A stretch of DNA of 12,892 bases. Source: a virus. Its lineage: Duplodnaviria; Heunggongvirae; Uroviricota; Caudoviricetes. The notes beneath the pieces are model-generated. The model saw nothing but the letters and a program-made list of their open reading frames with translations, was not told the DNA's origin and made no database searches. The stretch's first letter is position 1, and each line of letters starts with the position of its first letter. Of this stretch, positions 1 to 12,892 are shown piece by piece. The stretch lies in the IMG/VR virus record IMGVR_UViG_3300024343_000007, positions 64,001 to 76,892 of that record. The stretch is one strand, 5' to 3'. Both the position numbers and the translations under genes were made by a program.

Positions 1-3000
1 AAGAAGTATGGTGGAAATATAGTAAAGCTTAAGACCACATCATCAGGAATGAATTCAAAGGTAACTATTGATGTTCACCCTATTGCTGAAAAAGAATTTA
101 ATAAACTAAACCCACAGCAAGTATTGTTCTCTAAGAAAGGACAATTAGAAAGCTCTAAAGCTTCTCCTAAAACATTAGTAGTCATTAAAGACTTCTTAAA
201 TAGAATAGGAGTAGACATGCAGACTGTAGATAAGATTGTTGTAGATGGTGTGAGACAAGATGCTAATGGTGCTGCGTTGATAATGCAAAAGCTATTACAA
301 GTTGTAGAAGGTAAAGATGACATTGCCCTTCCTGAGGAAGCTATGCACTTTGCTGTAGAGATCTTAGAACAAAAAGATCCTGCATTGTTTAATCAATTAT
401 TAAAAGAGATTGGTAGCTATAGAATGTTACAACAAGTAATAGATCAATATAGCTCTGATCCAAATTATCAAACTGCTGATGGTAAACCTAACATCAGAAA
501 GTTAAAGAAAGAAGCTATTGCTAAAGTATTAGCTGAGGTAGTAATAGGTAAAGCTGAAGGTGTTGTTGAGAAGCCTGAGCTTATGGCTAAAGCAGAAACT
601 TGGTGGCAAAAGATTATTAGCTTCTTTAAGAATTTACTTGTAGAAAGTGGATTTGATACAGCTGCAATAAAGGTTCTTACAGGAGAAGGTATTGGTACAG
701 CTGAAGATATTAGAGCTGAAGAGGGAGAGTTCTTTTTACAGACCCCTGGTAATTCACAAGCTGCTGTATATCAAGGAATTAAAAACTTACAGAATCAAGT
801 TACTACTAAAGATGAAGTACAATCTGATGGAACAATAAAAACTTTCTATTATATTAATGGAAAGAAAGTTCCTAGAAGGGTAAGTGATCTTGTACAAGAT
901 TGGTACACTAGAAGATTTAAAGCTAATGATTTAACTAAAAGTGAATATGCTAAGTCATTAGATGATTTTAGAATGGAGAAAGGTACAAAAGGACATTCTG
1001 ATATTCAATATGCATTCAGCAGATTTGTAGATGAGAATGGATACTTACGTCCTAAAATGTTAGATGATTCTGATTACACGTCTCAACTTGATCCATACAA
1101 CAGAGACTACTATGAAATCCTTAGAGATAACTTGGAGGCAAGATTAAATTCTTTCCCTCCAAATACAAGATTCATGGCTGAGGTTACAATATATGATGAG
1201 AAAAGAGGAATTGCAGGCACAGTGGATTTCTTAGCTATTGAAGAATCAGGTAAGGTAAACATCTTAGATTGGAAGTTTATGGATATTAATCTTGAAAAAT
1301 CTAAAGGAGATATTCCTTGGTACAAGGTTAATTCTTGGAACCTACAAATGGACCAATACAAATCTATTATTAAAACAATGTTCAGTTTAAAGGATAAAGA
1401 CTTTAAACAAACAAGAATGATTCCTATCAGAGCAGTATATGAAGGAGGTAGTGCTAAAGAGAATGTACTTCCTATATTAACTTCAGTGGAGATTGGAGAT
1501 GTTAATATACAGAATATACAAGAAAACTATTTAATTCCTGTAGGTCTTGAAAAAGAAGAAACAGGTAATAAAAAGATTGACAAGTTATTAGAAAAGCTTA
1601 ACGCTGTATACAAACAGATATCTAATATCAAAGCTCTTCCTTCTCAGAAACTATCTAAAGCTGAACAGTTAAACGCATTGTTCTCTGCTATTAGGCAATT
1701 GCAGATGAAGCAGAACATTGTGCCATTGATATATCAAGCTAAGGTATTGAACAAACAGATTCAAACTAATATTGATACATATAATAATAAATGGAAAGGT
1801 ACAGATCCTAAGTCTTTCTCTATGGAAGAAATAGATGAATTCACTGATTCAATTATAGGAGCACAAGAAGCTATTCAAACTTATGCTACATTAGATACAG
1901 ATCTTAAATTCTTATTCCAAGGAGAGTTATCTGAAGAAGATAAGAAATTAAGAGAAGACTTAAGAGATGCTGCTGATAATGCTAGGGATCTAAATACAGA
2001 ACTATTAGAAGTAATGGATGAGTTTGCTGATAAAATTGTTGCTAATAGACAAGGTATATCTGATATACTTAAACCTGAGAAGATTGTTAGAGGGTTTGCC
2101 AAGTGGTTTTCTTCTACATCAATAACACAGGTTAAGGCTATACAGGTTTTATATAGAATGGCAAACAAAGCATTTGGTATAGGTGCTCAGCAAACACTTG
2201 ATGAAACTAAAAAATTACAAACTCTTCAAACTGCATATGAAGAGTGGGCTAAGTCTAAAGGACTTATTCCTAAGAACTACTTTGATATCTTGATGAAGAA
2301 AGGAGAGAATAAATTAATTGATCAATATGATCCTCAGTTTTATAAAGAACTTACTAAAAATGTAGGTGAGAAAAACTTTGATTGGATTAAAGACAATATT
2401 GATATTTCTGAATATAATAAGTTCTTAAAAGAAAGACTTGAGAAAGAAACTGAATACATTAATGAAAAGGCTAGAGTAGAAGAAGGAGAGGAAAGAGAAA
2501 AAGCTATTCAGCAAGAGATTGCTAAAGCTGAAAGAATGTATGACACTTCTACAACTGAAGGTCTTGGGTGGTTACAATATGATCTTATTAAGAAGTTTCC
2601 TAAAGAGAAATGGGAATCTGCTGAATGGAAAGAACTTAAGAACGTTAAACCAGCTAAAGATTTCTATGATTACATTATAGAAAGAAATAACTACTACCAA
2701 TCTATAGGATATATCCATGCAAAAGAAGCAAGGGTATTCCTTCCTTGGGTTAGAAAAGGAATGATGGAGAAGTTAATCTTTGGTGGTAAGATAGCTATAG
2801 GTGAACAGTTCTTAAGAAACATATCTGTAGATGAAGGTGATTTAGGATATGGTGAGACTGATCCTCTAACAGGTAGACCAGTGAACAGAGTTCCAATCTA
2901 TTTAACTAGAGAACTAGAAACAGATTATAGTACAGACTTGTTTAGAAACATGGCTCTTTATAATGAGATGGCTATTAAGTTTAAACAAATGTCTGATATA

Positions 3001-4746
3001 GAAGCACAAGCTAGATTACTTATTAGTGTAGAAAGAAACAAGAAAGCTATTGCTACATCTAGATATGGCAAGACTATAACAAATGAAAAAGGTGAGTTAG
3101 AATATACACCAGATAACACTGAGAACACTCAGCTATTAGAAGATATGGTGAAGGGTATTGTGTATGGACAGAAGTATATAGAAAGCGAAACCTTTGATCA
3201 GTTATTAGGTAAGATGGGTAACTTTGGTGAATCACTTAATAATGGTCTTGCCAAGTTAGGTGTTAATAGTAGAATATTTCCAGAGAACATAGCTAGTAGA
3301 CAGTTTAGCGTAAACAAGGTACTTAATCAAATTAATAATACATATCAAATCAATGCATTAGGATTCAACGTTCTATCAGCTCTTTCTAACTTGTTTGGTG
3401 GTACAGCTCAGTCTATTATCAACGCTGGTACATACTTTACACATGAAGAGTTTGCAGCCACTGAGTATTGGATGATGTTAGGTAAGATGACTGGTAATGA
3501 TAAGGATAAAAGAATTGCAGCATTAGAATACTTCCTTCCTTTAACAGATAATTATAATAAAGAAATTGCTAAGACATTATCTATTAGTAAGTTAAGTCAG
3601 GAGAACATCCAAGAGTTTTTAATGATCTTGATGAGAAAGTCAGACTTGTATGTACAGTCAGCTAACTTCTTTAGCTTCTTAAGTAATACTATTATAGTAG
3701 ATGGTGAGGTGGTAAATGCTAGAGAGTATTTAAGAAAGCAACCAGACTATCAAAAGAAATATCAAGGAACAGCTGAAGAACAAAAAGCTTTCAAACAGAA
3801 GTTTGAAGATGATGTTAAAAAGCTAATTGAAGATAAAGGAATCATGAAGGTTGCTACTATTAAAGATGGTAAATTAGAAATCCCTGGTGTAGAAAGATCT
3901 TCTGATAGCGTATTAGAATTAAGAAGAAAAGTGCAGTCTTTAAGTAAAGCTGCATTAGGTAACTTATCTGAAGATGATATTAGAAAGATTAACCTAAATA
4001 TATATGGTAAGTCTTTCATGTTATTTAAGAACTGGATTCCTAGACTTGTAGATGTAAGATATGGTAACTTAAAATTCAACGCTGGATCTGATGCCTATGA
4101 GTGGGGAAGAATGAGAAATGTATTTAGAATTATGTCTGAAGATATAAGAGGTTCATTATCAAATCTATACAACACACTACAAGGTAATGAGAAAGGTGTA
4201 GACTTTATGAGAAAGCTTTTTGAAAAGAAAAAGGCTGACTATGAATCAGATACAGGTAAGGAACTAGAAATGGATGAAGTGGCATTCATGGATTTAAATG
4301 TAAAGAATGTTAAGGCTCAGTTACTTGATACCATCTTCTTATTAACATTAGTTTCTTTATATGCTGGAGTTAAAGCATACGCTCCAGATGATGATGAGCT
4401 TAGCAAAAACCAACACAGATTCTTTGTCAAAGCAACAGATAAACTTAAGGATGAGCTTTTATATTTCTACAATCCTACAAGCATACTTAATCTAGTTTCA
4501 CAAGGTTTCTTCCCAGCAAAAGGTCTTATTGAAAACTATGTAAAGTTCTTTAACAATTTCATGTTAGAAAACTACTACATAGTTACAGGAGATGAAAAAG
4601 CTGCAGATAAAAACTTTGTACTTAAATATGGTATGAAAGCTGTTCCTGGTTTGAATCAGTTTGCATCTTGGTTACCAATGTTCTATCCTCAAGCAGCCAA
4701 AGACCTAGGAATTAGGGCCCAAGCACAATATGGATTTGTTAGATAG
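1..4746 (+). CDS. Giant phage virion / DNA-ejection-type polyvalent protein (at least 1565 aa, probably 5'-truncated) with N-terminal zincin-like motif, RecB-family PD-(D/E)xK nuclease domain and long alpha-helical C-terminal region
   Basis: Frame 1 has no stop from base 1 (KKYGGNIVKLKTTSSG) to the first Met at 49, so the true start may lie upstream; stop TAG at 4744-4746. No Cys in 1565 aa. K/E-rich helical composition. C-terminal segments (LGFNVLSALSNLFGG, FMLFKNWIPRLVDVRYG...EWGR, hydrophobic TIFLLTLVSLYAGV) recall giant internal virion proteins of podoviruses and crAss-like phages (recognised from memory, not searched). Directly upstream of a fibre operon. Confidence 0.7.
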   Translation, partial: KKYGGNIVKLKTTSSGMNSKVTIDVHPIAEKEFNKLNPQQVLFSKKGQLESSKASPKTLVVIKDFLNRIGVDMQTVDKIVVDGVRQDANGAALIMQKLLQVVEGKDDIALPEEAMHFAVEILEQKDPALFNQLLKEIGSYRMLQQVIDQYSSDPNYQTADGKPNIRKLKKEAIAKVLAEVVIGKAEGVVEKPELMAKAETWWQKIISFFKNLLVESGFDTAAIKVLTGEGIGTAEDIRAEEGEFFLQTPGNSQAAVYQGIKNLQNQVTTKDEVQSDGTIKTFYYINGKKVPRRVSDLVQDWYTRRFKANDLTKSEYAKSLDDFRMEKGTKGHSDIQYAFSRFVDENGYLRPKMLDDSDYTSQLDPYNRDYYEILRDNLEARLNSFPPNTRFMAEVTIYDEKRGIAGTVDFLAIEESGKVNILDWKFMDINLEKSKGDIPWYKVNSWNLQMDQYKSIIKTMFSLKDKDFKQTRMIPIRAVYEGGSAKENVLPILTSVEIGDVNIQNIQENYLIPVGLEKEETGNKKIDKLLEKLNAVYKQISNIKALPSQKLSKAEQLNALFSAIRQLQMKQNIVPLIYQAKVLNKQIQTNIDTYNNKWKGTDPKSFSMEEIDEFTDSIIGAQEAIQTYATLDTDLKFLFQGELSEEDKKLREDLRDAADNARDLNTELLEVMDEFADKIVANRQGISDILKPEKIVRGFAKWFSSTSITQVKAIQVLYRMANKAFGIGAQQTLDETKKLQTLQTAYEEWAKSKGLIPKNYFDILMKKGENKLIDQYDPQFYKELTKNVGEKNFDWIKDNIDISEYNKFLKERLEKETEYINEKARVEEGEEREKAIQQEIAKAERMYDTSTTEGLGWLQYDLIKKFPKEKWESAEWKELKNVKPAKDFYDYIIERNNYYQSIGYIHAKEARVFLPWVRKGMMEKLIFGGKIAIGEQFLRNISVDEGDLGYGETDPLTGRPVNRVPIYLTRELETDYSTDLFRNMALYNEMAIKFKQMSDIEAQARLLISVERNKKAIATSRYGKTITNEKGELEYTPDNTENTQLLEDMVKGIVYGQKYIESETFDQLLGKMGNFGESLNNGLAKLGVNSRIFPENIASRQFSVNKVLNQINNTYQINALGFNVLSALSNLFGGTAQSIINAGTYFTHEEFAATEYWMMLGKMTGNDKDKRIAALEYFLPLTDNYNKEIAKTLSISKLSQENIQEFLMILMRKSDLYVQSANFFSFLSNTIIVDGEVVNAREYLRKQPDYQKKYQGTAEEQKAFKQKFEDDVKKLIEDKGIMKVATIKDGKLEIPGVERSSDSVLELRRKVQSLSKAALGNLSEDDIRKINLNIYGKSFMLFKNWIPRLVDVRYGNLKFNAGSDAYEWGRMRNVFRIMSEDIRGSLSNLYNTLQGNEKGVDFMRKLFEKKKADYESDTGKELEMDEVAFMDLNVKNVKAQLLDTIFLLTLVSLYAGVKAYAPDDDELSKNQHRFFVKATDKLKDELLYFYNPTSILNLVSQGFFPAKGLIENYVKFFNNFMLENYYIVTGDEKAADKNFVLKYGMKAVPGLNQFASWLPMFYPQAAKDLGIRAQAQYGFVR
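280..636 (+). other. Zincin-like metallopeptidase (MPTase-type) domain with variant EExxH motif
   Basis: LPEEAMHF (E96-E97-x-x-H100, nt 334-348), downstream KEAIAKVLA (E155, candidate third ligand, nt 511) and WWQKIISFFKNL helix (nt 601-636). This motif order matches MPTase domains of phage polyvalent proteins, but the first His of HExxH is Glu. Boundaries approximate. Confidence 0.5.
847..1368 (+). other. RecB-family / PDDEXK_1-like nuclease domain inside the giant protein
   Basis: Ordered motifs YYING...RVSD, KGTKGH (H316), E378, GIAGTVD (D393, nt 1225), ILDWK (D407-x-K409, nt 1267-1275) and QMDQY (QxxxY). All expected catalytic positions are present. Confidence 0.8.
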
Positions 4747-4911: not shown

Positions 4912-7497
4912 ATGAACGTCACCTGTCAAGCAATCCCTTGCCCAGTAATACTGGATTCGACCTGCGTATTCTACGAAGGCCCATACCTTGTATACTCTGG
5001 TATTAATACTAACGACAATTTACAAACAGCATTAGAGAAGATTGATGCAGCTTTTGCATCAGCTGGCTATGGTACGTCTGGTACCTCTGGTTCCTCTGGA
5101 AAGAATGGCACATCTGGAACAGCAGGTTCTAGTGGTAAGTCAGGCACTTCAGGAACTGCTGGTACTTCTGCTAGCTCTGGTAATTCAGGTACAGCTGGTA
5201 CATCAGGAAGCTCTGGTAGCTCTGGAAAGAATGGTACTGCTGGAACATCAGGTTCATCAGGCAGTTCTGGCTCTAGTGGAAATAATGGTACATCAGGAAC
5301 CTCTGCTACATCTGGTAGCTCAGGCTCTAGTGGTACGTCTGGATCTTCTGCATCTAGTGGAACATCTGCTAGCTCAGGAACAGCAGGTTCTTCTGGTATT
5401 TCAGGTGACAGATATGCAACTATATCTAGTAGCACATTTACATTAGGTGCTGCAGGTTCTATTGTTATTGGATTAGGCTTAGCTTATACAGCAGCACAGA
5501 ACGTAATCATAGCATATAACTCAAGCAATCACCAAACTTCTGAGATAATTTCTTATAATCCTACTACAGGAGTGTTGACTTTTGATACTCCTACAGACGT
5601 TGCTGGTTCTGGCACATACTCAGTATGGTCAGTTAACTTAGCTGGAGCAGCAGGTGGTGATGGTTCTAGTGGTACAAGTGGAAGCTCTGGTACATCTGGA
5701 TCTACAGGAACCTCAGGATCTTCTGGATCAAGTGCAACTAGTGGATCAAGTGGAACAAATGGCTCTAGTGGTACCAATGGTTCTAGTGGTATTACAGGTA
5801 CTTCTGGTACTTCAGGAGGTACAGGATCAACAGGATCAGGTGGTACGTCTGGTACTAATGGTACATCAGCAACAGCTGGTACTTCTGGTGTTCCTGGAAC
5901 ATCTGGTACTTCAGGCACATCTGGTGCAGATGGTAGCTCTGGTACAGCCATTGCTAACTGGTATGGTCAGTGGTATTCTTCAGTATCTCAACAAGTTAGT
6001 GCTGCGAATACACCAACAGCTTGGTATTATACAAATACAGAATTATCATATGGTATTACAAATGTCTTGGGATCAAGATTGGTAGTAGCATATCCTGGAC
6101 AATATGAGTTTGCATTCACAGCAATTGTTGATAAACAAACTCCTGGTAGTGCTACATTAAATGTATGGTTAAGACTTAATGGTTCTGATTTAGCTAATAG
6201 TAAAGTTTCTATTGAACTTGTTGGTCAAGAAGTAGAACAATTACCACATACAGCACAAATTATAAACTTACTACCAGGTGATTATATTGAGTGGTATTTT
6301 GCTTGTGACGATAGCACTGCTAGGATCAAAGCAATTCCTCAATTAATCAGTCCATATTTATCTCCTGCTGCTCCAGCAGTAACTGCATACGCTAAACAAA
6401 TTGGTGTGGCAGTAAGTGGAACGTCTGGTACGTCTGCTTCTTCTGGAACATCTGGAACATCTGCTACAGATGGATCAAGTGGTACATCTGCATCATCTGG
6501 AACTTCTGGTTCGTCAGGTTCAACAGGTACCTCTGGTTCTTCTGGTACAAGTGGCACTACAGGAACAAGTGGTACAACAGGTACGTCAGGTACAACTGGA
6601 ACTGATGGCTCAAGTGGTACTAGTGGTACAACTGGAACAGATGGTTCTAGTGGTACTTCTGCATCAAGTGGTACTTCAGCTTCTAGTGGAACCTCAGGTT
6701 CATCTGGAACTGCAGGAACAAGTGGTACAGATGGTTCGTCTGGAACTTCTGGCACTGATGGTAGTTCAGGAACTGATGGTAGTTCAGGTACAAGTGGCAC
6801 TGATGGATCAAGTGGAACTTCAGGTTCTAGTGGTACAGCTGGAACAGCTGGTACTGATGGTTCATCAGGAACATCTGCATCTAGTGGAACCTCAGGTACA
6901 ACAGGTACAGATGGTTCTTCAGGAACAGATGGCTCTTCTGGTACCTCTGGTACAGATGGCTCTAGTGGAACAAGTGGAACAACAGGTACAGATGGATCAA
7001 GTGGTACAAGTGGAACAAGTGGAACTGATGGAAGTTCAGGCACTAGTGGAACTTCAGGTACTAATGGTTCAAGTGGAACTGCTGGTACAACTGGAACTGA
7101 TGGATCTAGTGGAACAGCAGGTACTGCTGGTACAACAGGTACAACAGGAACTTCTGGTACATCAACAAGTACATTAGGTACATCTGGAGATTCAATCACT
7201 ATTCCTCCTGCTGAAGCTACAACAACAACAAGTACAACATCTACAACATCTACTACAACAACAGCAGCACCTGTATACTACTATAATGTAGATCAATATA
7301 ACTGTCCAGGATGTACACTATTTGCACCATCAATACTTGCAGTTTCTACAGTATTATTAACTAATGGAGATTATTACAATATAGGTGATGGTTATGTTTA
7401 CCAAGTTAACTTTGGAGCTCCAGCTGGAACACCTATTGTTGATCTTAGTACAGCTGCATCAGCTGGAACAGATTGTTCTGCAACTTGTGCAATATAA
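4912..7497 (+). CDS. Multidomain Gly-X-Y (G-T/S-S/T) fibre protein, 861 aa
   Basis: Architecture: Cys-containing N-terminal domain (CVFYEG..L..SGI.T.DNLQTALEKID); G-X-Y block 5071-5406; repeated beta module 5407-5640; G-X-Y 5644-5949; C1q/BclA-C-like beta domain 5956-6402; 83-triplet G-X-Y block 6418-7164; Thr-rich linker; Cys-containing C-terminal domain. A-rich start context without SD. Confidence 0.8.
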   Translation: MNVTCQAIPCPVILDSTCVFYEGPYLVYSGINTNDNLQTALEKIDAAFASAGYGTSGTSGSSGKNGTSGTAGSSGKSGTSGTAGTSASSGNSGTAGTSGSSGSSGKNGTAGTSGSSGSSGSSGNNGTSGTSATSGSSGSSGTSGSSASSGTSASSGTAGSSGISGDRYATISSSTFTLGAAGSIVIGLGLAYTAAQNVIIAYNSSNHQTSEIISYNPTTGVLTFDTPTDVAGSGTYSVWSVNLAGAAGGDGSSGTSGSSGTSGSTGTSGSSGSSATSGSSGTNGSSGTNGSSGITGTSGTSGGTGSTGSGGTSGTNGTSATAGTSGVPGTSGTSGTSGADGSSGTAIANWYGQWYSSVSQQVSAANTPTAWYYTNTELSYGITNVLGSRLVVAYPGQYEFAFTAIVDKQTPGSATLNVWLRLNGSDLANSKVSIELVGQEVEQLPHTAQIINLLPGDYIEWYFACDDSTARIKAIPQLISPYLSPAAPAVTAYAKQIGVAVSGTSGTSASSGTSGTSATDGSSGTSASSGTSGSSGSTGTSGSSGTSGTTGTSGTTGTSGTTGTDGSSGTSGTTGTDGSSGTSASSGTSASSGTSGSSGTAGTSGTDGSSGTSGTDGSSGTDGSSGTSGTDGSSGTSGSSGTAGTAGTDGSSGTSASSGTSGTTGTDGSSGTDGSSGTSGTDGSSGTSGTTGTDGSSGTSGTSGTDGSSGTSGTSGTNGSSGTAGTTGTDGSSGTAGTAGTTGTTGTSGTSTSTLGTSGDSITIPPAEATTTTSTTSTTSTTTTAAPVYYYNVDQYNCPGCTLFAPSILAVSTVLLTNGDYYNIGDGYVYQVNFGAPAGTPIVDLSTAASAGTDCSATCAI
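5956..6402 (+). other. Probable C1q/TNF/BclA C-terminal-like jelly-roll trimerisation domain, internal to the fibre
   Basis: YGQWYS...ANTPTAW.Y......GI....SRLVVAYPGQYEFAFTA...VWLRLNG...GDYIEW pattern: alternating beta strands with the G-x-Y-x-F-x-F and GDYIE-type motifs typical of C1q/BclA-like heads, flanked by G-X-Y repeats. Confidence 0.55.
6418..7164 (+). repeat. 83 in-register triplets ([15 protein letters not shown], occasional Ala for Gly), no Pro, Lys or Arg
   Basis: Counted from the translation; contains 13 GTD-GSS hexapeptides. Confidence 0.95.
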
Positions 7498-7520
7498 ATA
7501 AAAATATAAAATAAATATAA

Positions 7521-8864
7521 ATGCCTTACGCTAATATTACAATAACAGTACAACCTAATTTGAACTTTGTTCTTGGTCAGTACATCCAAGTGATCAATGA
7601 TGAGAATAATTTCTTATATGGTCAAGTGGTTACATATGATTCAATTACAGGAATCTTAGTATTTGAACCAACAAACTATGTTGGTAGTGGTACATATACT
7701 AGTTGGACTGTAATTGGTTCAGGTATACCAGGATCAAGTGGAACATCTGGCACTGATGGTTCTAGTGGAACCAATGGATCTAGTGGAACAAATGGTTCCA
7801 GTGGAACAGATGGTAGCTCAGGAACCAATGGTTCTAGTGGAACTGCTGGAACTTCTGGTCTTTCTGGTACAAGTGGATCTTCTGGTACAGCAGGTCTTTC
7901 TGGAGACTTATACAAAACAACATCAGTTAGTAGCTTAACAATAGGAACTGGTACACAAAACTTAACTGTTGGTACAGGGTTAGCGTACACTGTAGGACAG
8001 GTGGTAGTTATTGCTTATGACATAAGTAATAGTATGGGTGGTGATGTGTTATCATATGACGCAGGTACAGGTGCCATGTCAGTTAGCGTTAGTGCTACTG
8101 CTGGTTCTGGTACATACACAGCATGGCAAGTGAACTTAGGTGGTGCTGCTGGAGGTGATGGTACATCAGGTACTTCTGGTTTGCAAGGTTTGGATGGTAA
8201 CTTAGCTACTTGGAGATTATCTAGTTCTACAAACACAGGAACAGATCCAGGCAGTGGTTTCTTTGCTCTAAGCAGTGGCTTAACTTGGGGTACAACTACA
8301 ACAAGCATTGCTATTGACAACATATCTTATGACCCAGCAATTAACTTCTCATCTTACCTTGACTATTTACAACCTAATACAGTTCTTAAGATAGTTAAGA
8401 ATGATGATAAGAATACATATAAAATATTATTAATTACAGCAAGAGATCCATTGGAGCCTGGCTTTGAGCAATTCTCTGTTTCACAGATTGCTTCTGCAGG
8501 TCCTGATCCAGATGTTAATGATGTATTCTATTTTAACGTTATTGGTGTAAGTGGTAGCTCAGGTACTGCAGGTACTTCAGCATCTGCTGGTACAAGTGGA
8601 CAAGATGCTACATCAGGAACAAATGGTTCATCTGGAACTAGTGGTACATCAGGTTCAAGTGGTACATCAGGTACTGATGGAAGCTCTGGTACTAGTGGAA
8701 CATCTGGTACTAATGGAACGTCTGCGTCAAGTGGATCAAGTGGGACATCTGGCACAAGTGCCTCAGCAGGTACAAGTGCTTCTTCTGGAACTGCAGCAAC
8801 ATCAGGTGAAACAACAATATACTCAGGAACAAGTGGTACAACAGAAACATTACCTCCTGCTTAA
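7521..8864 (+). CDS. Gly-X-Y fibre / adaptor protein, 447 aa, with two copies of the repeated beta module and one unrelated beta domain
   Basis: N-terminal module 7521-7715; G-X-Y 7722-7904; internal module 7905-8138; ~114 aa domain 8199-8540; G-X-Y 8544-8813; ends ...GTSGTTETLPPA. No S74 chaperone. Preceded by a 23-nt A/T-only spacer. Confidence 0.8.
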   Translation: MPYANITITVQPNLNFVLGQYIQVINDENNFLYGQVVTYDSITGILVFEPTNYVGSGTYTSWTVIGSGIPGSSGTSGTDGSSGTNGSSGTNGSSGTDGSSGTNGSSGTAGTSGLSGTSGSSGTAGLSGDLYKTTSVSSLTIGTGTQNLTVGTGLAYTVGQVVVIAYDISNSMGGDVLSYDAGTGAMSVSVSATAGSGTYTAWQVNLGGAAGGDGTSGTSGLQGLDGNLATWRLSSSTNTGTDPGSGFFALSSGLTWGTTTTSIAIDNISYDPAINFSSYLDYLQPNTVLKIVKNDDKNTYKILLITARDPLEPGFEQFSVSQIASAGPDPDVNDVFYFNVIGVSGSSGTAGTSASAGTSGQDATSGTNGSSGTSGTSGSSGTSGTDGSSGTSGTSGTNGTSASSGSSGTSGTSASAGTSASSGTAATSGETTIYSGTSGTTETLPPA

Positions 8865-8873
8865 TAAATATAT

Positions 8874-10193
8874 ATGCCTTACAGTAATATAACATTCAAT
8901 ATCACCACAGGTCGTGCATTCAAAGTGGATGACTTTGTCAAAGTTGCAGCTAATTCAAATAACTACATCACTGGTAGGGTTGTATCTTACAACCCAGCCA
9001 CTGGTGATTTAGTTGTTACTCCATATGAGGCAGTTGGATCAGGTACGTTTAGTAGCTGGACAGCAACCCTCACTGGATACAATGGAAGTGCTGGAACTGC
9101 AGGATCATCTGGTACTACAGGTACAGCTGGAACAAGTGGTTCCTCTGGTACAAATGGTACAACAGGAACTGCTGGAACAACTGGCACAGCTGGAACAGAA
9201 GGCAGTTCAGGATCTACAGGTACAAGTGGCACATCTGCAGAAAGTAATTCTAGTGGATCTTCTGGTACTTCTGCTAGTTCAGGAACAGTTGGTGACTCAG
9301 GATCTACTGGAACATCTGGATCTGCTGGTACAGCAGGTACTTCAGGAACAAGTGGAAGTAGTGCATCAAGTGGAACATCTGGTGCATCAGGTACAAGTGG
9401 TAGTTCAGGAACCTCTGGATCTACTGGTACTGCTGGATCTACTGGTACAACTGGAACCTCTGGATCAAGTGGAGCTACAGGACCTCAAGGACCTATAGGT
9501 CCAACAGGACCTCAAGGAGCAACAGGTGGCAAAGGTGCTTCTGGATCTTCTGGAGCTACTGGTCCTCAAGGTCCAACAGGTCCTGCTGGTGGACAAGGTC
9601 CACCAGGTGCTGCAGGTGCTCCAGGTCCACAAGGACCTCAAGGACCTACTGGAGGGCAAGGCCCAACTGGAGCTACTGGAGCTCAGGGACCAACAGGTAC
9701 ATCTGCTTCATATAATCAAAATTTGAATATTAACGCAGGCCCAACAATGGTTTTTACAAACTTTGCTGGTGCTGTTGCTCCTACAATAAATTATAGAACA
9801 TATTTTAATAACTATAAGCAATTTGTGCAAGGTGCAAATCAAGGTGCAGGTTGGACAGGCTTTGGTCCAGGTTGGTATACTCCTGCATCATTAGGTGCTG
9901 CTAGTTTTTATATTACATCAACTAGAGATACTAAGACTAACATCCAATCATATGCTCCTTCTGCAGTGGATTTATTAAAACAAGTTGATATAGTATCTTA
10001 TAATTTAGAGATAGAACAATGTGATGAGGATAAGAGAATAGGATTTATTGCTGAAAATACTCCTAAAGAATTATCCACTGATTCAAAAAATCAAATGGAA
10101 ATAAGTTGTACCTTAGCATTTGTTTTAAAAGCTATACAAGAGATTGACGCAAGAATTGTAAACCTACAAAATAAGAAGAACAATGCCAGCTAA
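8874..10193 (+). CDS. Collagen-like fibre protein A with C-terminal peptidase S74 intramolecular chaperone, 439 aa
   Basis: N-terminal module 8874-9071; 70 triplets 9075-9704 (first Pro at triplet 46); YNQNLN at 9711; aromatic tip; S-T-R-D-T-K-T-N-I (Ser 9918, Lys 9933 at +5); IGFIAE; terminal heptad helix LKAIQEIDARIVNL. Confidence 0.85.
   Translation: MPYSNITFNITTGRAFKVDDFVKVAANSNNYITGRVVSYNPATGDLVVTPYEAVGSGTFSSWTATLTGYNGSAGTAGSSGTTGTAGTSGSSGTNGTTGTAGTTGTAGTEGSSGSTGTSGTSAESNSSGSSGTSASSGTVGDSGSTGTSGSAGTAGTSGTSGSSASSGTSGASGTSGSSGTSGSTGTAGSTGTTGTSGSSGATGPQGPIGPTGPQGATGGKGASGSSGATGPQGPTGPAGGQGPPGAAGAPGPQGPQGPTGGQGPTGATGAQGPTGTSASYNQNLNINAGPTMVFTNFAGAVAPTINYRTYFNNYKQFVQGANQGAGWTGFGPGWYTPASLGAASFYITSTRDTKTNIQSYAPSAVDLLKQVDIVSYNLEIEQCDEDKRIGFIAENTPKELSTDSKNQMEISCTLAFVLKAIQEIDARIVNLQNKKNNAS
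9918..10190 (+). other. Peptidase S74 / intramolecular chaperone auto-processing domain
   Basis: S-x4-K dyad, K-x-x-I, GFIAE motif and C-terminal coiled coil. Confidence 0.85.
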
Positions 10194-11466
10194 CATGACC
10201 TTTAATATAAATACTGAGCTAGCTTATCAAGCAGGTGATAATGTACAATTAAGCCATGATGCTGATAACTATGTCATTGGTACTGTTGTGTCATATAATA
10301 AAGGAACAGGTTCAATAACAATTACTCCCACTGCTTGGAAAGGTAGTGGTACATATAGCTCTTGGACAGTTAACTTAACTGGTACACCTGGCTCTTCTGG
10401 AACATCTGCTTCTGGAGGTTCATCAGGTAAAGCTGGTGAAAGTGGAAGCTCAGGTAAAGATGGAGCACCTGGTCAATCAGGAAGTTCTGGTAAAGGAGGT
10501 AAGTCAAATACTTCTGGTCAATCAGGAGATGCTGGTAGTGCAGGAACAACAGGTACGTCAGGTACACGTGGTCAATCTGGATCTAGTGGTAAAGCTGGAG
10601 CTCATGGTAGTTCTGGTAATAGTAGAACATCAGGAGCTGCTGGTGGAAAAGGATCAAATGGTAATTCAGGCTCAGCTGGTAACAGTGGTGGCTCAGGATC
10701 AAATGGTACATCTGGATCTGCTGGTGCAAGTGGTGGATCAGGTAAAGCTGGTGCAAGTGGTCCAAGTGGTGGATCAGGAGTAAATGGACCCACAGGTCCT
10801 ACTGGTGGACAAGGGCCAATTGGTCCCACTGGAGCTCAAGGAGCAGGTGGTACATCTGGTGTTAATGGTGCAACAGGAGCACAAGGAGCACAAGGAGCAC
10901 AAGGACCAAGAGGTCCACAAGGTGGCACTGGTCCTCAAGGGGGCACTGGTCCAGGGGGTGCTCAAGGTCCAGCTGGTGCACAAGGCCCTACAGGCTCTCC
11001 AGGTGGACAAGGCCCTCAGACAATTTACAATCAATCACTTAACCAAGGAGATGCTGTTCAATTTAGTAATACAGTTACTCAGAATGAAGCTTATTCTGGT
11101 GGTGGATGGAGAATTCAAAATCAAGCAGCATGTAGTGCTAATCAAGGAGCATATTGGTATAGTAATGGTAACTGGGTTTCTGCTGGCGTAGTAGGTTCTA
11201 GTAACTACTTTGGTACATCTTCATCAATATATAAGACAGATATTAAACCTTATCAAGCATGTGCAGTTGATTTAATAAACACTGTAGATATAGTTGAATA
11301 TGAACTTGAGAATCCAATGTATAATCATGTAAAGTTAGGATTCATTGCAGATGATACAGCTGAAGAATTTGCAGGTCCAAATCATGATAAAATGGATATC
11401 ACTAACAGTATAGGTGTTGCTTTAAAAGCTTTACAGGAACTAAACAAAAAAATAGATAATTTATAA
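10183..11466 (+). CDS. Collagen-like fibre protein B with C-terminal peptidase S74 intramolecular chaperone, 427 aa
   Basis: Overlaps the previous gene by 11 nt (possible translational coupling). MPANMTF start is homologous to MPYSN(I/M)TF. Module 10183-10377; 71 triplets 10381-11019; YNQSLN at 11026; S-S-S-I-Y-K-T-D-I (Ser 11218, Lys 11233); LGFIAD; LKALQELNKKIDNL. Confidence 0.85.
   Translation: MPANMTFNINTELAYQAGDNVQLSHDADNYVIGTVVSYNKGTGSITITPTAWKGSGTYSSWTVNLTGTPGSSGTSASGGSSGKAGESGSSGKDGAPGQSGSSGKGGKSNTSGQSGDAGSAGTTGTSGTRGQSGSSGKAGAHGSSGNSRTSGAAGGKGSNGNSGSAGNSGGSGSNGTSGSAGASGGSGKAGASGPSGGSGVNGPTGPTGGQGPIGPTGAQGAGGTSGVNGATGAQGAQGAQGPRGPQGGTGPQGGTGPGGAQGPAGAQGPTGSPGGQGPQTIYNQSLNQGDAVQFSNTVTQNEAYSGGGWRIQNQAACSANQGAYWYSNGNWVSAGVVGSSNYFGTSSSIYKTDIKPYQACAVDLINTVDIVEYELENPMYNHVKLGFIADDTAEEFAGPNHDKMDITNSIGVALKALQELNKKIDNL
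10876..10905 (+). repeat. Exact 9-bp tandem repeat (ggagcacaa x3; GAQ triplets)
   Basis: Read directly from the sequence. Confidence 0.9.
11218..11463 (+). other. Peptidase S74 / intramolecular chaperone auto-processing domain
   Basis: S-x4-K dyad, GFIAD motif and terminal coiled coil. Confidence 0.85.
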
Positions 11467-11476
11467 AAATAAAGAT

Positions 11477-11845
11477 ATGGTAGTTAATTATAATTTCATA
11501 CTTGATGATTTGCACGTAGCACCAACGTTAGAAGGTCATTCTCAAGTTGTATTGAAGATTAGTTGGTTTCTAGTTGGTACAGCAGTTGATGCTGCAGGTA
11601 ATATACATGAAGAAAGATACTCTGCTACTACTACTATTAAACCTGATGTTGCTCCTGGTGAGTTCATTGCTTTTGAGCAATTAACTCCTCAAGTACTTCA
11701 ATCGTGGGTTGAGATTAGTGAGAATAGAAAGAAAAGAAACATGGCTTGGATAAAAGCTAACATGATAGATAAAAGACTTGAAGATAAAGTGACTCCTAAA
11801 GTCGTTTTAATTAAACCAACTTGGTTACAAAATAACAATCAGTAA
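11477..11845 (+). CDS. Small phage fibre-associated protein, 122 aa (resembles the family I recall as DUF7936)
   Basis: Pattern Y.F.L..L...P...G...VV..ISW...G ... FI.FEQLT...L..WV ... P..W, seen in small proteins encoded beside S74-containing fibre genes. Family name is from memory and unverified. Confidence 0.55.
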
Positions 11846-11847
11846 TT

Positions 11848-12892
11848 ATGCCATACTCTAATATGACATTTAATGTTAGTACAGGACTTGCGTTCGTTGT
11901 CAATGACTTCGTCCAAGTAAGTTATGATGCTAATAATTATATAATTGGTAGAGTTGTATCTTATGATTCTGGTACTGGTGTATTAGTAATCACTCCATAT
12001 GACTATAAAGGATCTGGATCATATAGTAGTTGGACTGTATCTTTAACAGGATACAATGGAACAGCTGCTACATCAGGTACATCAAGTATCTCAGCAACTG
12101 CTGGTACTGCTGGTACTGCTGGTACTAGTGCTACAGTGGGAACGTCTGGAGAAAGTGATAGTTCTGGTACATCTGGAACAGCTGCAACCTCTGGCACAAG
12201 TGCATCTGCAGGTTCATCTGGAACAGGTGGATCATCAGGAACAGCAGGTGACTCTGCTCAATCTGGTACAACAGGTACGAGTGGTACGAGTGGATCTTCA
12301 GGAACGTCTGCAGAAAGTGGTACGTCTGGATCAAGTGGAACCAATGGTTCTTCTGCTACAACAGGTGCATCAGGTGGAAGTGGTACATCAGGTTCTTCAG
12401 GATCTTCAGCTTCATCAGGAGTTTCTGGAACATCAGGTTCTTCAGGAGTTAATGGTCCCACTGGTTCTACAGGTCCAACAGGAACACAAGGTCCCACTGG
12501 TTCAACAGGATCTAGTGGTGTATCAGGGGTAAATGGACCTACTGGTGCTACAGGTCCACAAGGTCCACAAGGACTTACAGGTTTTCAAGGACCAACTGGA
12601 CCAATAGGTGCAACAGGAGGTCCTGGACCACAAGGACCCACAGGTCCTCAAGGGGCTCAAGGTCCTCAGGGCCCATCAAATAGTAATAACCAATCATTGA
12701 ATGCTAGTAATAATTCAGTTTTTGAAGGAGGTGTAACAACAAGTCAATGGTATACTGCACAAAGATTTTACCAAGGTGGTCATAGAGGAATGATAAGTCC
12801 TTCAACTCCAACCTTTTTTGGAGAAGGATTTGGATGGTATACATTTGCTTCGATAGGATCTACTTATTTCTTCACTGTATCTACAGAAGAAG
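11848..12892 (+). CDS. Collagen-like fibre protein C (3'-truncated by the window; absent from the ORF track)
   Basis: ATG at 11848, two bases after the previous stop, no stop to the window end (348 codons). [44 protein letters not shown]...SWTVSLT module; 70 triplets 12049-12678; NNQSLN at 12685; aromatic tip; ends ...YFFTVSTEE where the S74 Ser is expected (12880). Confidence 0.9.
12097..12126 (+). repeat. Exact 9-bp tandem repeat (actgctggt x3)
   Basis: Read directly from the sequence. Confidence 0.9.

Follow-up and report, generated by a model that had tools for sequence, protein, structure and literature searches.

Co-evolving shaft length, zone switch, and net charge in three collagen-like fiber paralogs of a Caudoviricetes phage

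The question raised by this locus is why three diverged fiber genes of one phage should carry collagen-like shafts of nearly the same length. The stretch of DNA analyzed (the window) comprised the 12,892 nucleotides (nt) at positions 64,001 to 76,892 of the IMG/VR record IMGVR_UViG_3300024343_000007 (Duplodnaviria; Heunggongvirae; Uroviricota; Caudoviricetes), which form the final 12.9 kb of a 76.9-kb linear viral contig with a CheckV completeness of 67%. The three genes, named A, B, and C, lie at its downstream end. Phage fibers that combine collagen-like tracts with S74 chaperones are a familiar kind, to which the proteins of this trio belong; what is new is that the trio is conserved and co-evolves. 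An earlier note, made from the sequence alone, had described the three shafts as length-locked and had proposed either a molecular ruler placing three different tips at the same radius or three chains that co-assemble. Across related contigs, the three chains were found to co-evolve in shaft length, in the location of the zone switch, and in net charge. The reading that would explain this best, to which we assign a probability of roughly 0.55, is that A, B, and C are the chains of one A-B-C heterotrimeric collagen-like fiber.

Concerted change of shaft length, zone switch, and net charge

All features given here lie on the plus strand of the window. Gene A (8874–10193, 439 amino acids (aa)) was matched by Pfam Collagen (1.4e-26) and Peptidase_S74 (24.0 bits, above the cut-off of 22), and was divided into an N-terminal beta-barrel (8874–9074), a shaft (9075–9704), a tip (9705–9920), and an S74 region (9921–10190). 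Gene B (10183–11466, 427 aa), whose start overlaps the end of gene A by 11 nt, was matched by Pfam Collagen (6.8e-18) and, under the cut-off of 22, by Peptidase_S74 (19.1 bits); its parts are the N-domain (10183–10380), the shaft (10381–11019), the tip (11020–11229), and the S74 region (11230–11463). Gene C (11848–12891; Pfam Collagen 2.7e-20) is cut at its 3' side by the contig end, and only the N-domain (11848–12048), the shaft (12049–12678), and the tip (12679–12891) are present. Its full-length tail was supplied by P0027, a C protein from a near-identical contig, which was identical in 71/71 residues over the part present in the window and carries PF13884; the window C ends before the S74 domain.

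The three shafts were in frame with their open reading frames (ORFs) and contained exactly 70, 71, and 70 triplets, as the earlier note had counted. Its other readings of the letters were also recovered: 280, 282, and 280 residues stand before the NQxLN motif in A, B, and C; the Pro-rich part starts at triplet 46 in A (GPQ46) and C (GPT46); and GVN45, GPT46, and GVN54 occupy identical positions in B and C. In B, a lone GPS43 precedes GPT46. Triplets 1–45 are almost free of Pro, and the Pro-richness is confined to the last ~25 triplets, so that shaft A consists of a Ser/Thr zone (9075–9479) and a Pro zone (9480–9704); a Pro-free island was found at triplets 50–54 of the trio shafts. The first-position Gly was absent in 4, 3, and 11 triplets of A, B, and C, respectively, every one of them before triplet 42. 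In terms of the collagen family PF01391, the long Gly-X-Y periodicity is present in all three proteins, as seen from the triplet counts and the Pfam matches, and Gly at every third residue together with imino-rich X and Y positions does not extend along the entire rod. Shaft B is rich in Lys. The Gly-less triplets of chain C (Ser/Thr zone, 12049–12460) were kept in position across deeply diverged orthologs, with triplets 5, 6, 10, 18, 24, 30, and 35 common to the window and contigs L065 and L017; these positions are features rather than decay.

The protein search gave more than 4000 matches, and in the best 120, in which the triplets were counted, the triplet count was sharply quantized. Approximately 40 contigs with the locus were gathered from IMG/VR, the metagenomes of the Joint Genome Institute (JGI), and exact-protein look-ups, and the collagen residues were measured by a walk that tolerated register breaks. 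Exactly three such genes were present in every related contig with sufficient flank. Three apparent exceptions in copy number were detection misses, and the missing genes were recovered by reading the sequences. Nine length classes were found, with A/B/C lengths of 132/134/132, 135/137/-, 180/181/178, 186/188/185, 198/198/198, 207/210/207, 210/213/210 (the window), 213/216/213, and 228/231/228 residues, some A and C lengths having been adjusted for variant tail starts after the data had been seen. As a separate observation on these tail starts, the first 10–15 residues of the tip were replaced by extra Gly-phased triplets, with the protein length unchanged, in A of L016, L051, and L053 and in C of L018, L019, L056, and L044.

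The steps between classes were taken by the chains together. All three genes showed single-triplet steps (69/70/69, 70/71/70, and 71/72/71 triplets), and another such step separated 132/134 from 135/137 residues. When the classes were mapped on a tree of the concatenated end domains, the measured chains all changed by an equal amount in at least seven separate transitions. Independent variation of shaft length among relatives, which the earlier note had named as evidence that would speak against its proposal, was not what was found; the lengths co-varied, with independent-contrast correlations (r) of 0.96 for A-B, 0.74 for A-C, and 0.80 for B-C (p from 7e-22 to 8e-6). In every class, the Ser/Thr-to-Pro switch was matched across A, B, and C, at triplet 23–24, 41–42, or 46–47, which indicates that both zones are length-matched, beyond their sum. 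Furthermore, contigs L125, L126, and L041 were picked for one protein of unseen length, and the other two chains then matched it. Because the three lengths change together in the relatives, the equality of length evidently exceeds chance.

The net charge of the shafts behaved in a similar way. The charges of A/B/C were -2/+7/-4 in the window, -3/+10/-5 in L125, -3/+9/-5 in L017, -5/-1/+8 in L060, and 0/0/0 in L065. Summed over the three chains, the charge had a variance of 5.4, compared with 27.6 for the sum of the separate variances, and 0/20000 shuffles reached 5.4. The contrast r of one chain against the other two was -0.85 for B, -0.75 for C, and -0.52 for A, and the more conservative sign tests gave 13/18, 14/20, and 13/18.

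Register breaks were observed in some of the shorter shafts. In L126 and in the 132- and 186-residue classes, B and C share two-residue breaks at coordinate 117, 164, or 171; chain A never carries such breaks, and the long classes, including the window, have none left. The idea that the extra triplet of B is a "healed" two-residue break was dropped, as it was not demonstrable.

Age of the genes and origin of the match

The amino-acid identity between A, B, and C was 50–64% in the N-domain, 54–56% in the shaft, and 27–39% in the tip, and the synonymous divergence (dS) was about 1 or more in every part. In a tree of the non-collagen parts, built with 91 distinct proteins from related contigs, three orthogroups corresponding to A, B, and C were obtained. 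Each orthogroup held all length classes, and the internal topologies agreed across A, B, and C. The presence of every length class in each of the three orthogroups places the triplication before the whole clade. The duplication is thus judged to be ancient, with saturated synonymous divergence, and the match cannot be ascribed to a recent duplication of low synonymous divergence, which the earlier note had named as the other outcome against it; that source was rejected. Taken together, the ancient duplication and the co-varying lengths support the view, also put forward in the earlier note, that equal length implies selection.

The way in which a match can arise was seen in contig L126, where the 16-triplet expansion was visible as a separate tandem duplication inside every one of the three genes (144, 141, and 141 nt). 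The duplicate copies were 88–90% alike within a gene and 65–71% alike between genes. The higher likeness within genes points to three mutations that arose independently and were alike in size, position, and age. Gene conversion was rejected as the source of the matching, because no excess similarity of the paralogs within a genome was detected: the nucleotide identity of the shafts between paralogs was 0.55–0.58 within one genome and the same between genomes. The exact 9-bp tandem repeats mentioned in the earlier note were located at 10875–10905 in shaft B (3.4 copies, GAQ triplets) and at 12097–12126 in shaft C (3.3 copies).

Between the window and L065, the shafts were 66–76% identical and the end domains 82–98%, so that the shafts diverge faster; dS was 0–0.1 in the chaperone and 0.6–0.8 in all three shafts. 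Such heterogeneous dS within genes suggests frequent recombination inside the fiber genes. An example was provided by L128, the closest relative. Its B was identical to that of the window, and its C differed only by the loss of 5 triplets; its A was foreign in the 5' half, which came from another lineage. The resulting lengths were 213/213/195. The mismatch in L128 therefore looks like a fresh mosaic. Mismatches appeared only as young singletons, and matched sets persisted across deep branches. With active recombination, this distribution argues that the matching is maintained against a steady supply of mismatches. The length lock of the earlier note was thus upheld in that the lengths change together across relatives; it is not absolute, since four to five contigs had one chain 2–6 triplets off.

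Candidate assembly states and comparison with known systems

All readings of the assembly state considered here were drawn from comparison of sequences. S74 domains trimerize, aid the folding of fibers, and then cut themselves off. In the proposed mechanism, A, B, and C would be three ancient paralogous chains of one virion fiber, each with a beta-barrel of 66–67 residues, a two-zone shaft, a tip of ~70 residues, and a C-terminal Peptidase_S74 chaperone. The shaft would begin with ~45 Ser/Thr-rich triplets that tolerate the loss of Gly and continue with ~25 Pro-rich triplets. The chaperone is predicted to trimerize, to nucleate folding from the C-terminal end, and then to cut itself off. One chain of each kind would wind into a single triple helix, with globular domains pinning both ends. 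Any gain or loss of a triplet in one chain would then require a match in the other two, a basic chain would have to be balanced by acidic partners, and rod length and charge balance would be kept by compensatory evolution in the three genes. We consider it somewhat more probable than its opposite that this is a natural A-B-C collagen, in which diverged chains are selected and registered by self-cleaving S74 domains and wound into one rod, that is, a viral analog of C1q independent of animal collagens.

The models and profiles of the end domains bear on the parts of this scheme. The N-domain of 66–67 residues was modeled by AlphaFold2 as a small five-stranded beta-barrel with a predicted local distance difference test (pLDDT) score of 82.5. 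It had no match in Pfam or PHROG, and a Foldseek search of the Protein Data Bank (PDB) with the model gave no match with an E of 0.001 or lower; the top weak matches, beyond E 0.001, were N-terminal beta-barrels of V-type ATPase subunits. The tip had no Pfam or PHROG family, the S74 region being the only part of the tail with one. For the A tail, monomer modeling gave a poor result (pLDDT 47.8). The tail fiber PDB 8jov was matched, with an E of 7.5e-6, by a profile built from 29 tails. In the tail alignment, neither the Ser nor the Lys of the S-x4-K dyad varied (S84 and K89 of the aligned tail A3), and both aligned to the S-x4-K of 8jov. In addition, PHROGs annotated the collagen part as tail fiber, and the matches of A in cultured phages were confined to the S74 domain, in Chryseobacterium and Bacillus phages (31–36% identity over 19–20% of A).

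Collagen rises ~0.29 nm per residue, which gives ~0.9 nm for one triplet and ~60 nm for the rod described here, with 38–66 nm expected over the range of length classes. On a flexible rod of this length, a step of one triplet is too small to be easily seen as a selected reach, and it would be natural if the chains were pinned at both ends. The concerted single-triplet steps and the compensating charges together favor a physical association of the three chains. Of the two alternatives in the earlier note, the evidence accordingly leans to co-assembly.

Several observations weigh against a heterotrimer. To our knowledge, all structures of S74 chaperones are homotrimers. The mismatched contigs, with lengths of 213/213/195 in L128, 213/213/207 in L127, 195/213/204 in L043, A 120 and C 132 in L077, and perhaps A 204 in L046, suggest either that a mismatch of 2–6 triplets is tolerated, that it is transient, or that it is an assembly artifact of repeats; assembly collapse of repeats could be the cause of some of them. 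The correction of some A and C lengths for variant starts of the tail was post hoc. Moreover, coincidences of non-Gly triplets between chains numbered 33, compared with 42.7 expected (P 0.02), a weak deficit from genomes that are non-independent, and the axial closeness of opposite charges was marginal under a circular-shift null (P 0.04–0.24). The occurrence of the beta-barrel module in single-copy collagen genes indicates that the module is not specific to a heterotrimer. In a complex prediction with the three tails (tip and S74, each with its own alignment), the score was 0.39, and a control with chain 1 replaced gave 0.46; this result speaks neither for nor against binding.

The strongest competing explanation is that A, B, and C form three separate homotrimeric fibers, A3, B3, and C3, with different tips and selected for the same reach, for instance because the tips contact the cell surface together or span one capsule layer. 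We regard it as serious and, on balance, rather unlikely. It would account well for tips that differ strongly between the paralogs (27–39% identity) and whose starts change one chain at a time, for the existence of 2–6-triplet mismatches, and for the fact that the characterized S74 fibers and bacterial collagen-like proteins are all homotrimers. The shared zone architecture could make a same-size duplication the easiest mutation in each gene, and the twelve hubs of crAss001 dock trimeric fibers bearing further fiber proteins (PMC10172136). However, selection on reach should not register a 0.9-nm step when the rod is flexible and 60 nm long, yet the single-triplet steps were concerted. If the fibers were independent, nothing would explain why the net charges of the genes cancel. 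The charge of a B3 rod would amount to +21 to +30, and a Pro-free zone would hold hardly any opposite charges. Furthermore, the copy number was fixed at three, unlike in ordinary arrays of receptor-binding proteins.

Three homotrimeric rods could also be bundled side by side, as nine chains held by charge attraction and with no mixed triple helix. Length matching and charge compensation need only association along the rod and no shared helix, which this arrangement would provide. It nevertheless appears improbable, as no precedent is known to us among phage fibers, extra assumptions are needed for docking three different trimers at both ends, and the problem of strongly charged homotrimers is the same. 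The view that equal length is not selected at all, the match being inherited from the duplication or produced by gene conversion or another shared mutational process, can appeal to the common architecture of the paralogs and to the slippage that the exact 9-bp repeats show to be possible, and is largely refuted by a duplication older than nine different length classes, the faster divergence of the shafts than of the end domains, the lack of excess similarity between paralogs of one genome, the three separate gene-internal duplications of L126, and the contrast correlations of 0.74–0.96.

Compared with known systems, the heterotrimeric fiber proposed for the trio would have its closest functional analog in C1q. 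C1q, with its A, B, and C chains, and the collagens of types I and IV are, like the trio, encoded by three linked paralogs whose collagen regions are equally long. In C1q and heterotrimeric collagens, an irregular stretch is shared by the chains at one level; the counterparts in the trio are the Pro-free island at triplets 50–54 and, in relatives, the coincident breaks of B and C. The head of C1q is made of three different C-terminal domains, as that of the trio would be. The C1q head is gC1q/TNF-like, whereas none was detected in the trio, whose tip is without a Pfam or PHROG family. The trio also differs from C1q in its folding by a self-cleaving S74 chaperone and in a rod of which half is Pro-free and tolerant of Gly loss, and its heterotrimer is a prediction only.

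The S74 (PF13884) fibers, such as the K1F endosialidase, T5 pb1 (PMC4690869), and PDB 8jov, have a C-terminal S-x4-K domain after a trimeric fiber, in the same way as the trio. The known ones are homotrimers of a single gene, whereas the trio consists of three paralogs that are conserved together and co-evolve in rod length and charge. Streptococcus Scl1/Scl2 and Bacillus anthracis BclA resemble the trio in having Gly-X-Y rods without the hydroxyproline dependence of the animal type, and the Thr-rich triplets of BclA are like those of the trio, the relatives of which have adjoining glycosyltransferase and prolyl-hydroxylase-like genes. The lengths of bacterial collagen-like proteins vary freely between strains. 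These proteins are homotrimers from single genes (PMC8968730).

Mixed trimers have been described in other viruses. In the virophage DSLV2, three consecutive tail proteins were reported to form a heterotrimer (PMC12724248). Similar to the trio, three adjacent paralogous fiber genes form a conserved set for which one mixed trimer was proposed; however, these proteins are gp37-like and not collagen-like, there was no argument from co-evolving length or charge, and the virus group is different. In the crAss001 virion, trimeric fibers are docked on hubs that are A2B heterotrimers, and the fibers are multi-protein and unresolved (PMC10172136). They were not described as collagen, and no sequence relationship of the trio to gp22, gp21, or gp29 was seen, none having been tested. 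A literature search found no paper on collagen trios in Crassvirales.

If the heterotrimer is real, it would be the first natural heterotrimeric collagen known outside animals. Such a fiber would provide a simple, genetically tractable system for collagen chain selection and register, and its natural chain-selection domains could be used in collagen engineering. Tandem fiber paralogs of phages would then be read as one composite receptor-binding fiber and not as three alternatives. Even if the three were separate fibers of the same reach, the results would point to unusually precise selection on fiber length in this phage group.

Gene layout of the window and neighboring genes

The plus-strand ORFs of the window are packed head to tail. 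In the relatives, the genes stand in the order A-B-DUF7936-C or, in two lineages, B-DUF7936-A-C, overlapping or directly adjoining one another. Directly after the trio stands a 2-oxoglutarate (2OG)-Fe(II) oxygenase of the prolyl-4-hydroxylase family (PF13640), followed by one to three PF13759 2OG-Fe(II) oxygenases, DUF6445, and glycosyltransferases, with a sulfotransferase in a single case. The set was seen after gene C in L041, L043, L044, L125–L128, and L014, and it looks like a fiber-modification cassette. PF13640 was searched for and not found in the 76.9-kb contig of the window, which stops inside gene C, before the position of the cassette.

The DUF7936 gene of the window (11477–11845, 122 aa; Pfam PF25590, 3.5e-7) lies between B and C. 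In the relatives, this gene was always enclosed by the trio, with B on one side and either C or A on the other. The DUF7936 clusters in Atlas were viral only and of unknown function; the protein could be a fiber assembly factor or adaptor.

Upstream of the trio, a 1565-aa ORF (49–4746) without a Pfam or PHROG match immediately precedes the collagen-like genes. Two larger collagen-like proteins of 861 and 447 aa are encoded at 4912–8864, and the lengths of their collagen tracts did not match those of the trio. The beta-barrel module of A, B, and C recurred inside both of these proteins, with Gly-X-Y on either side, and other viral contigs (L033, L034, and L117) carry it in collagen genes that are present as a single copy.

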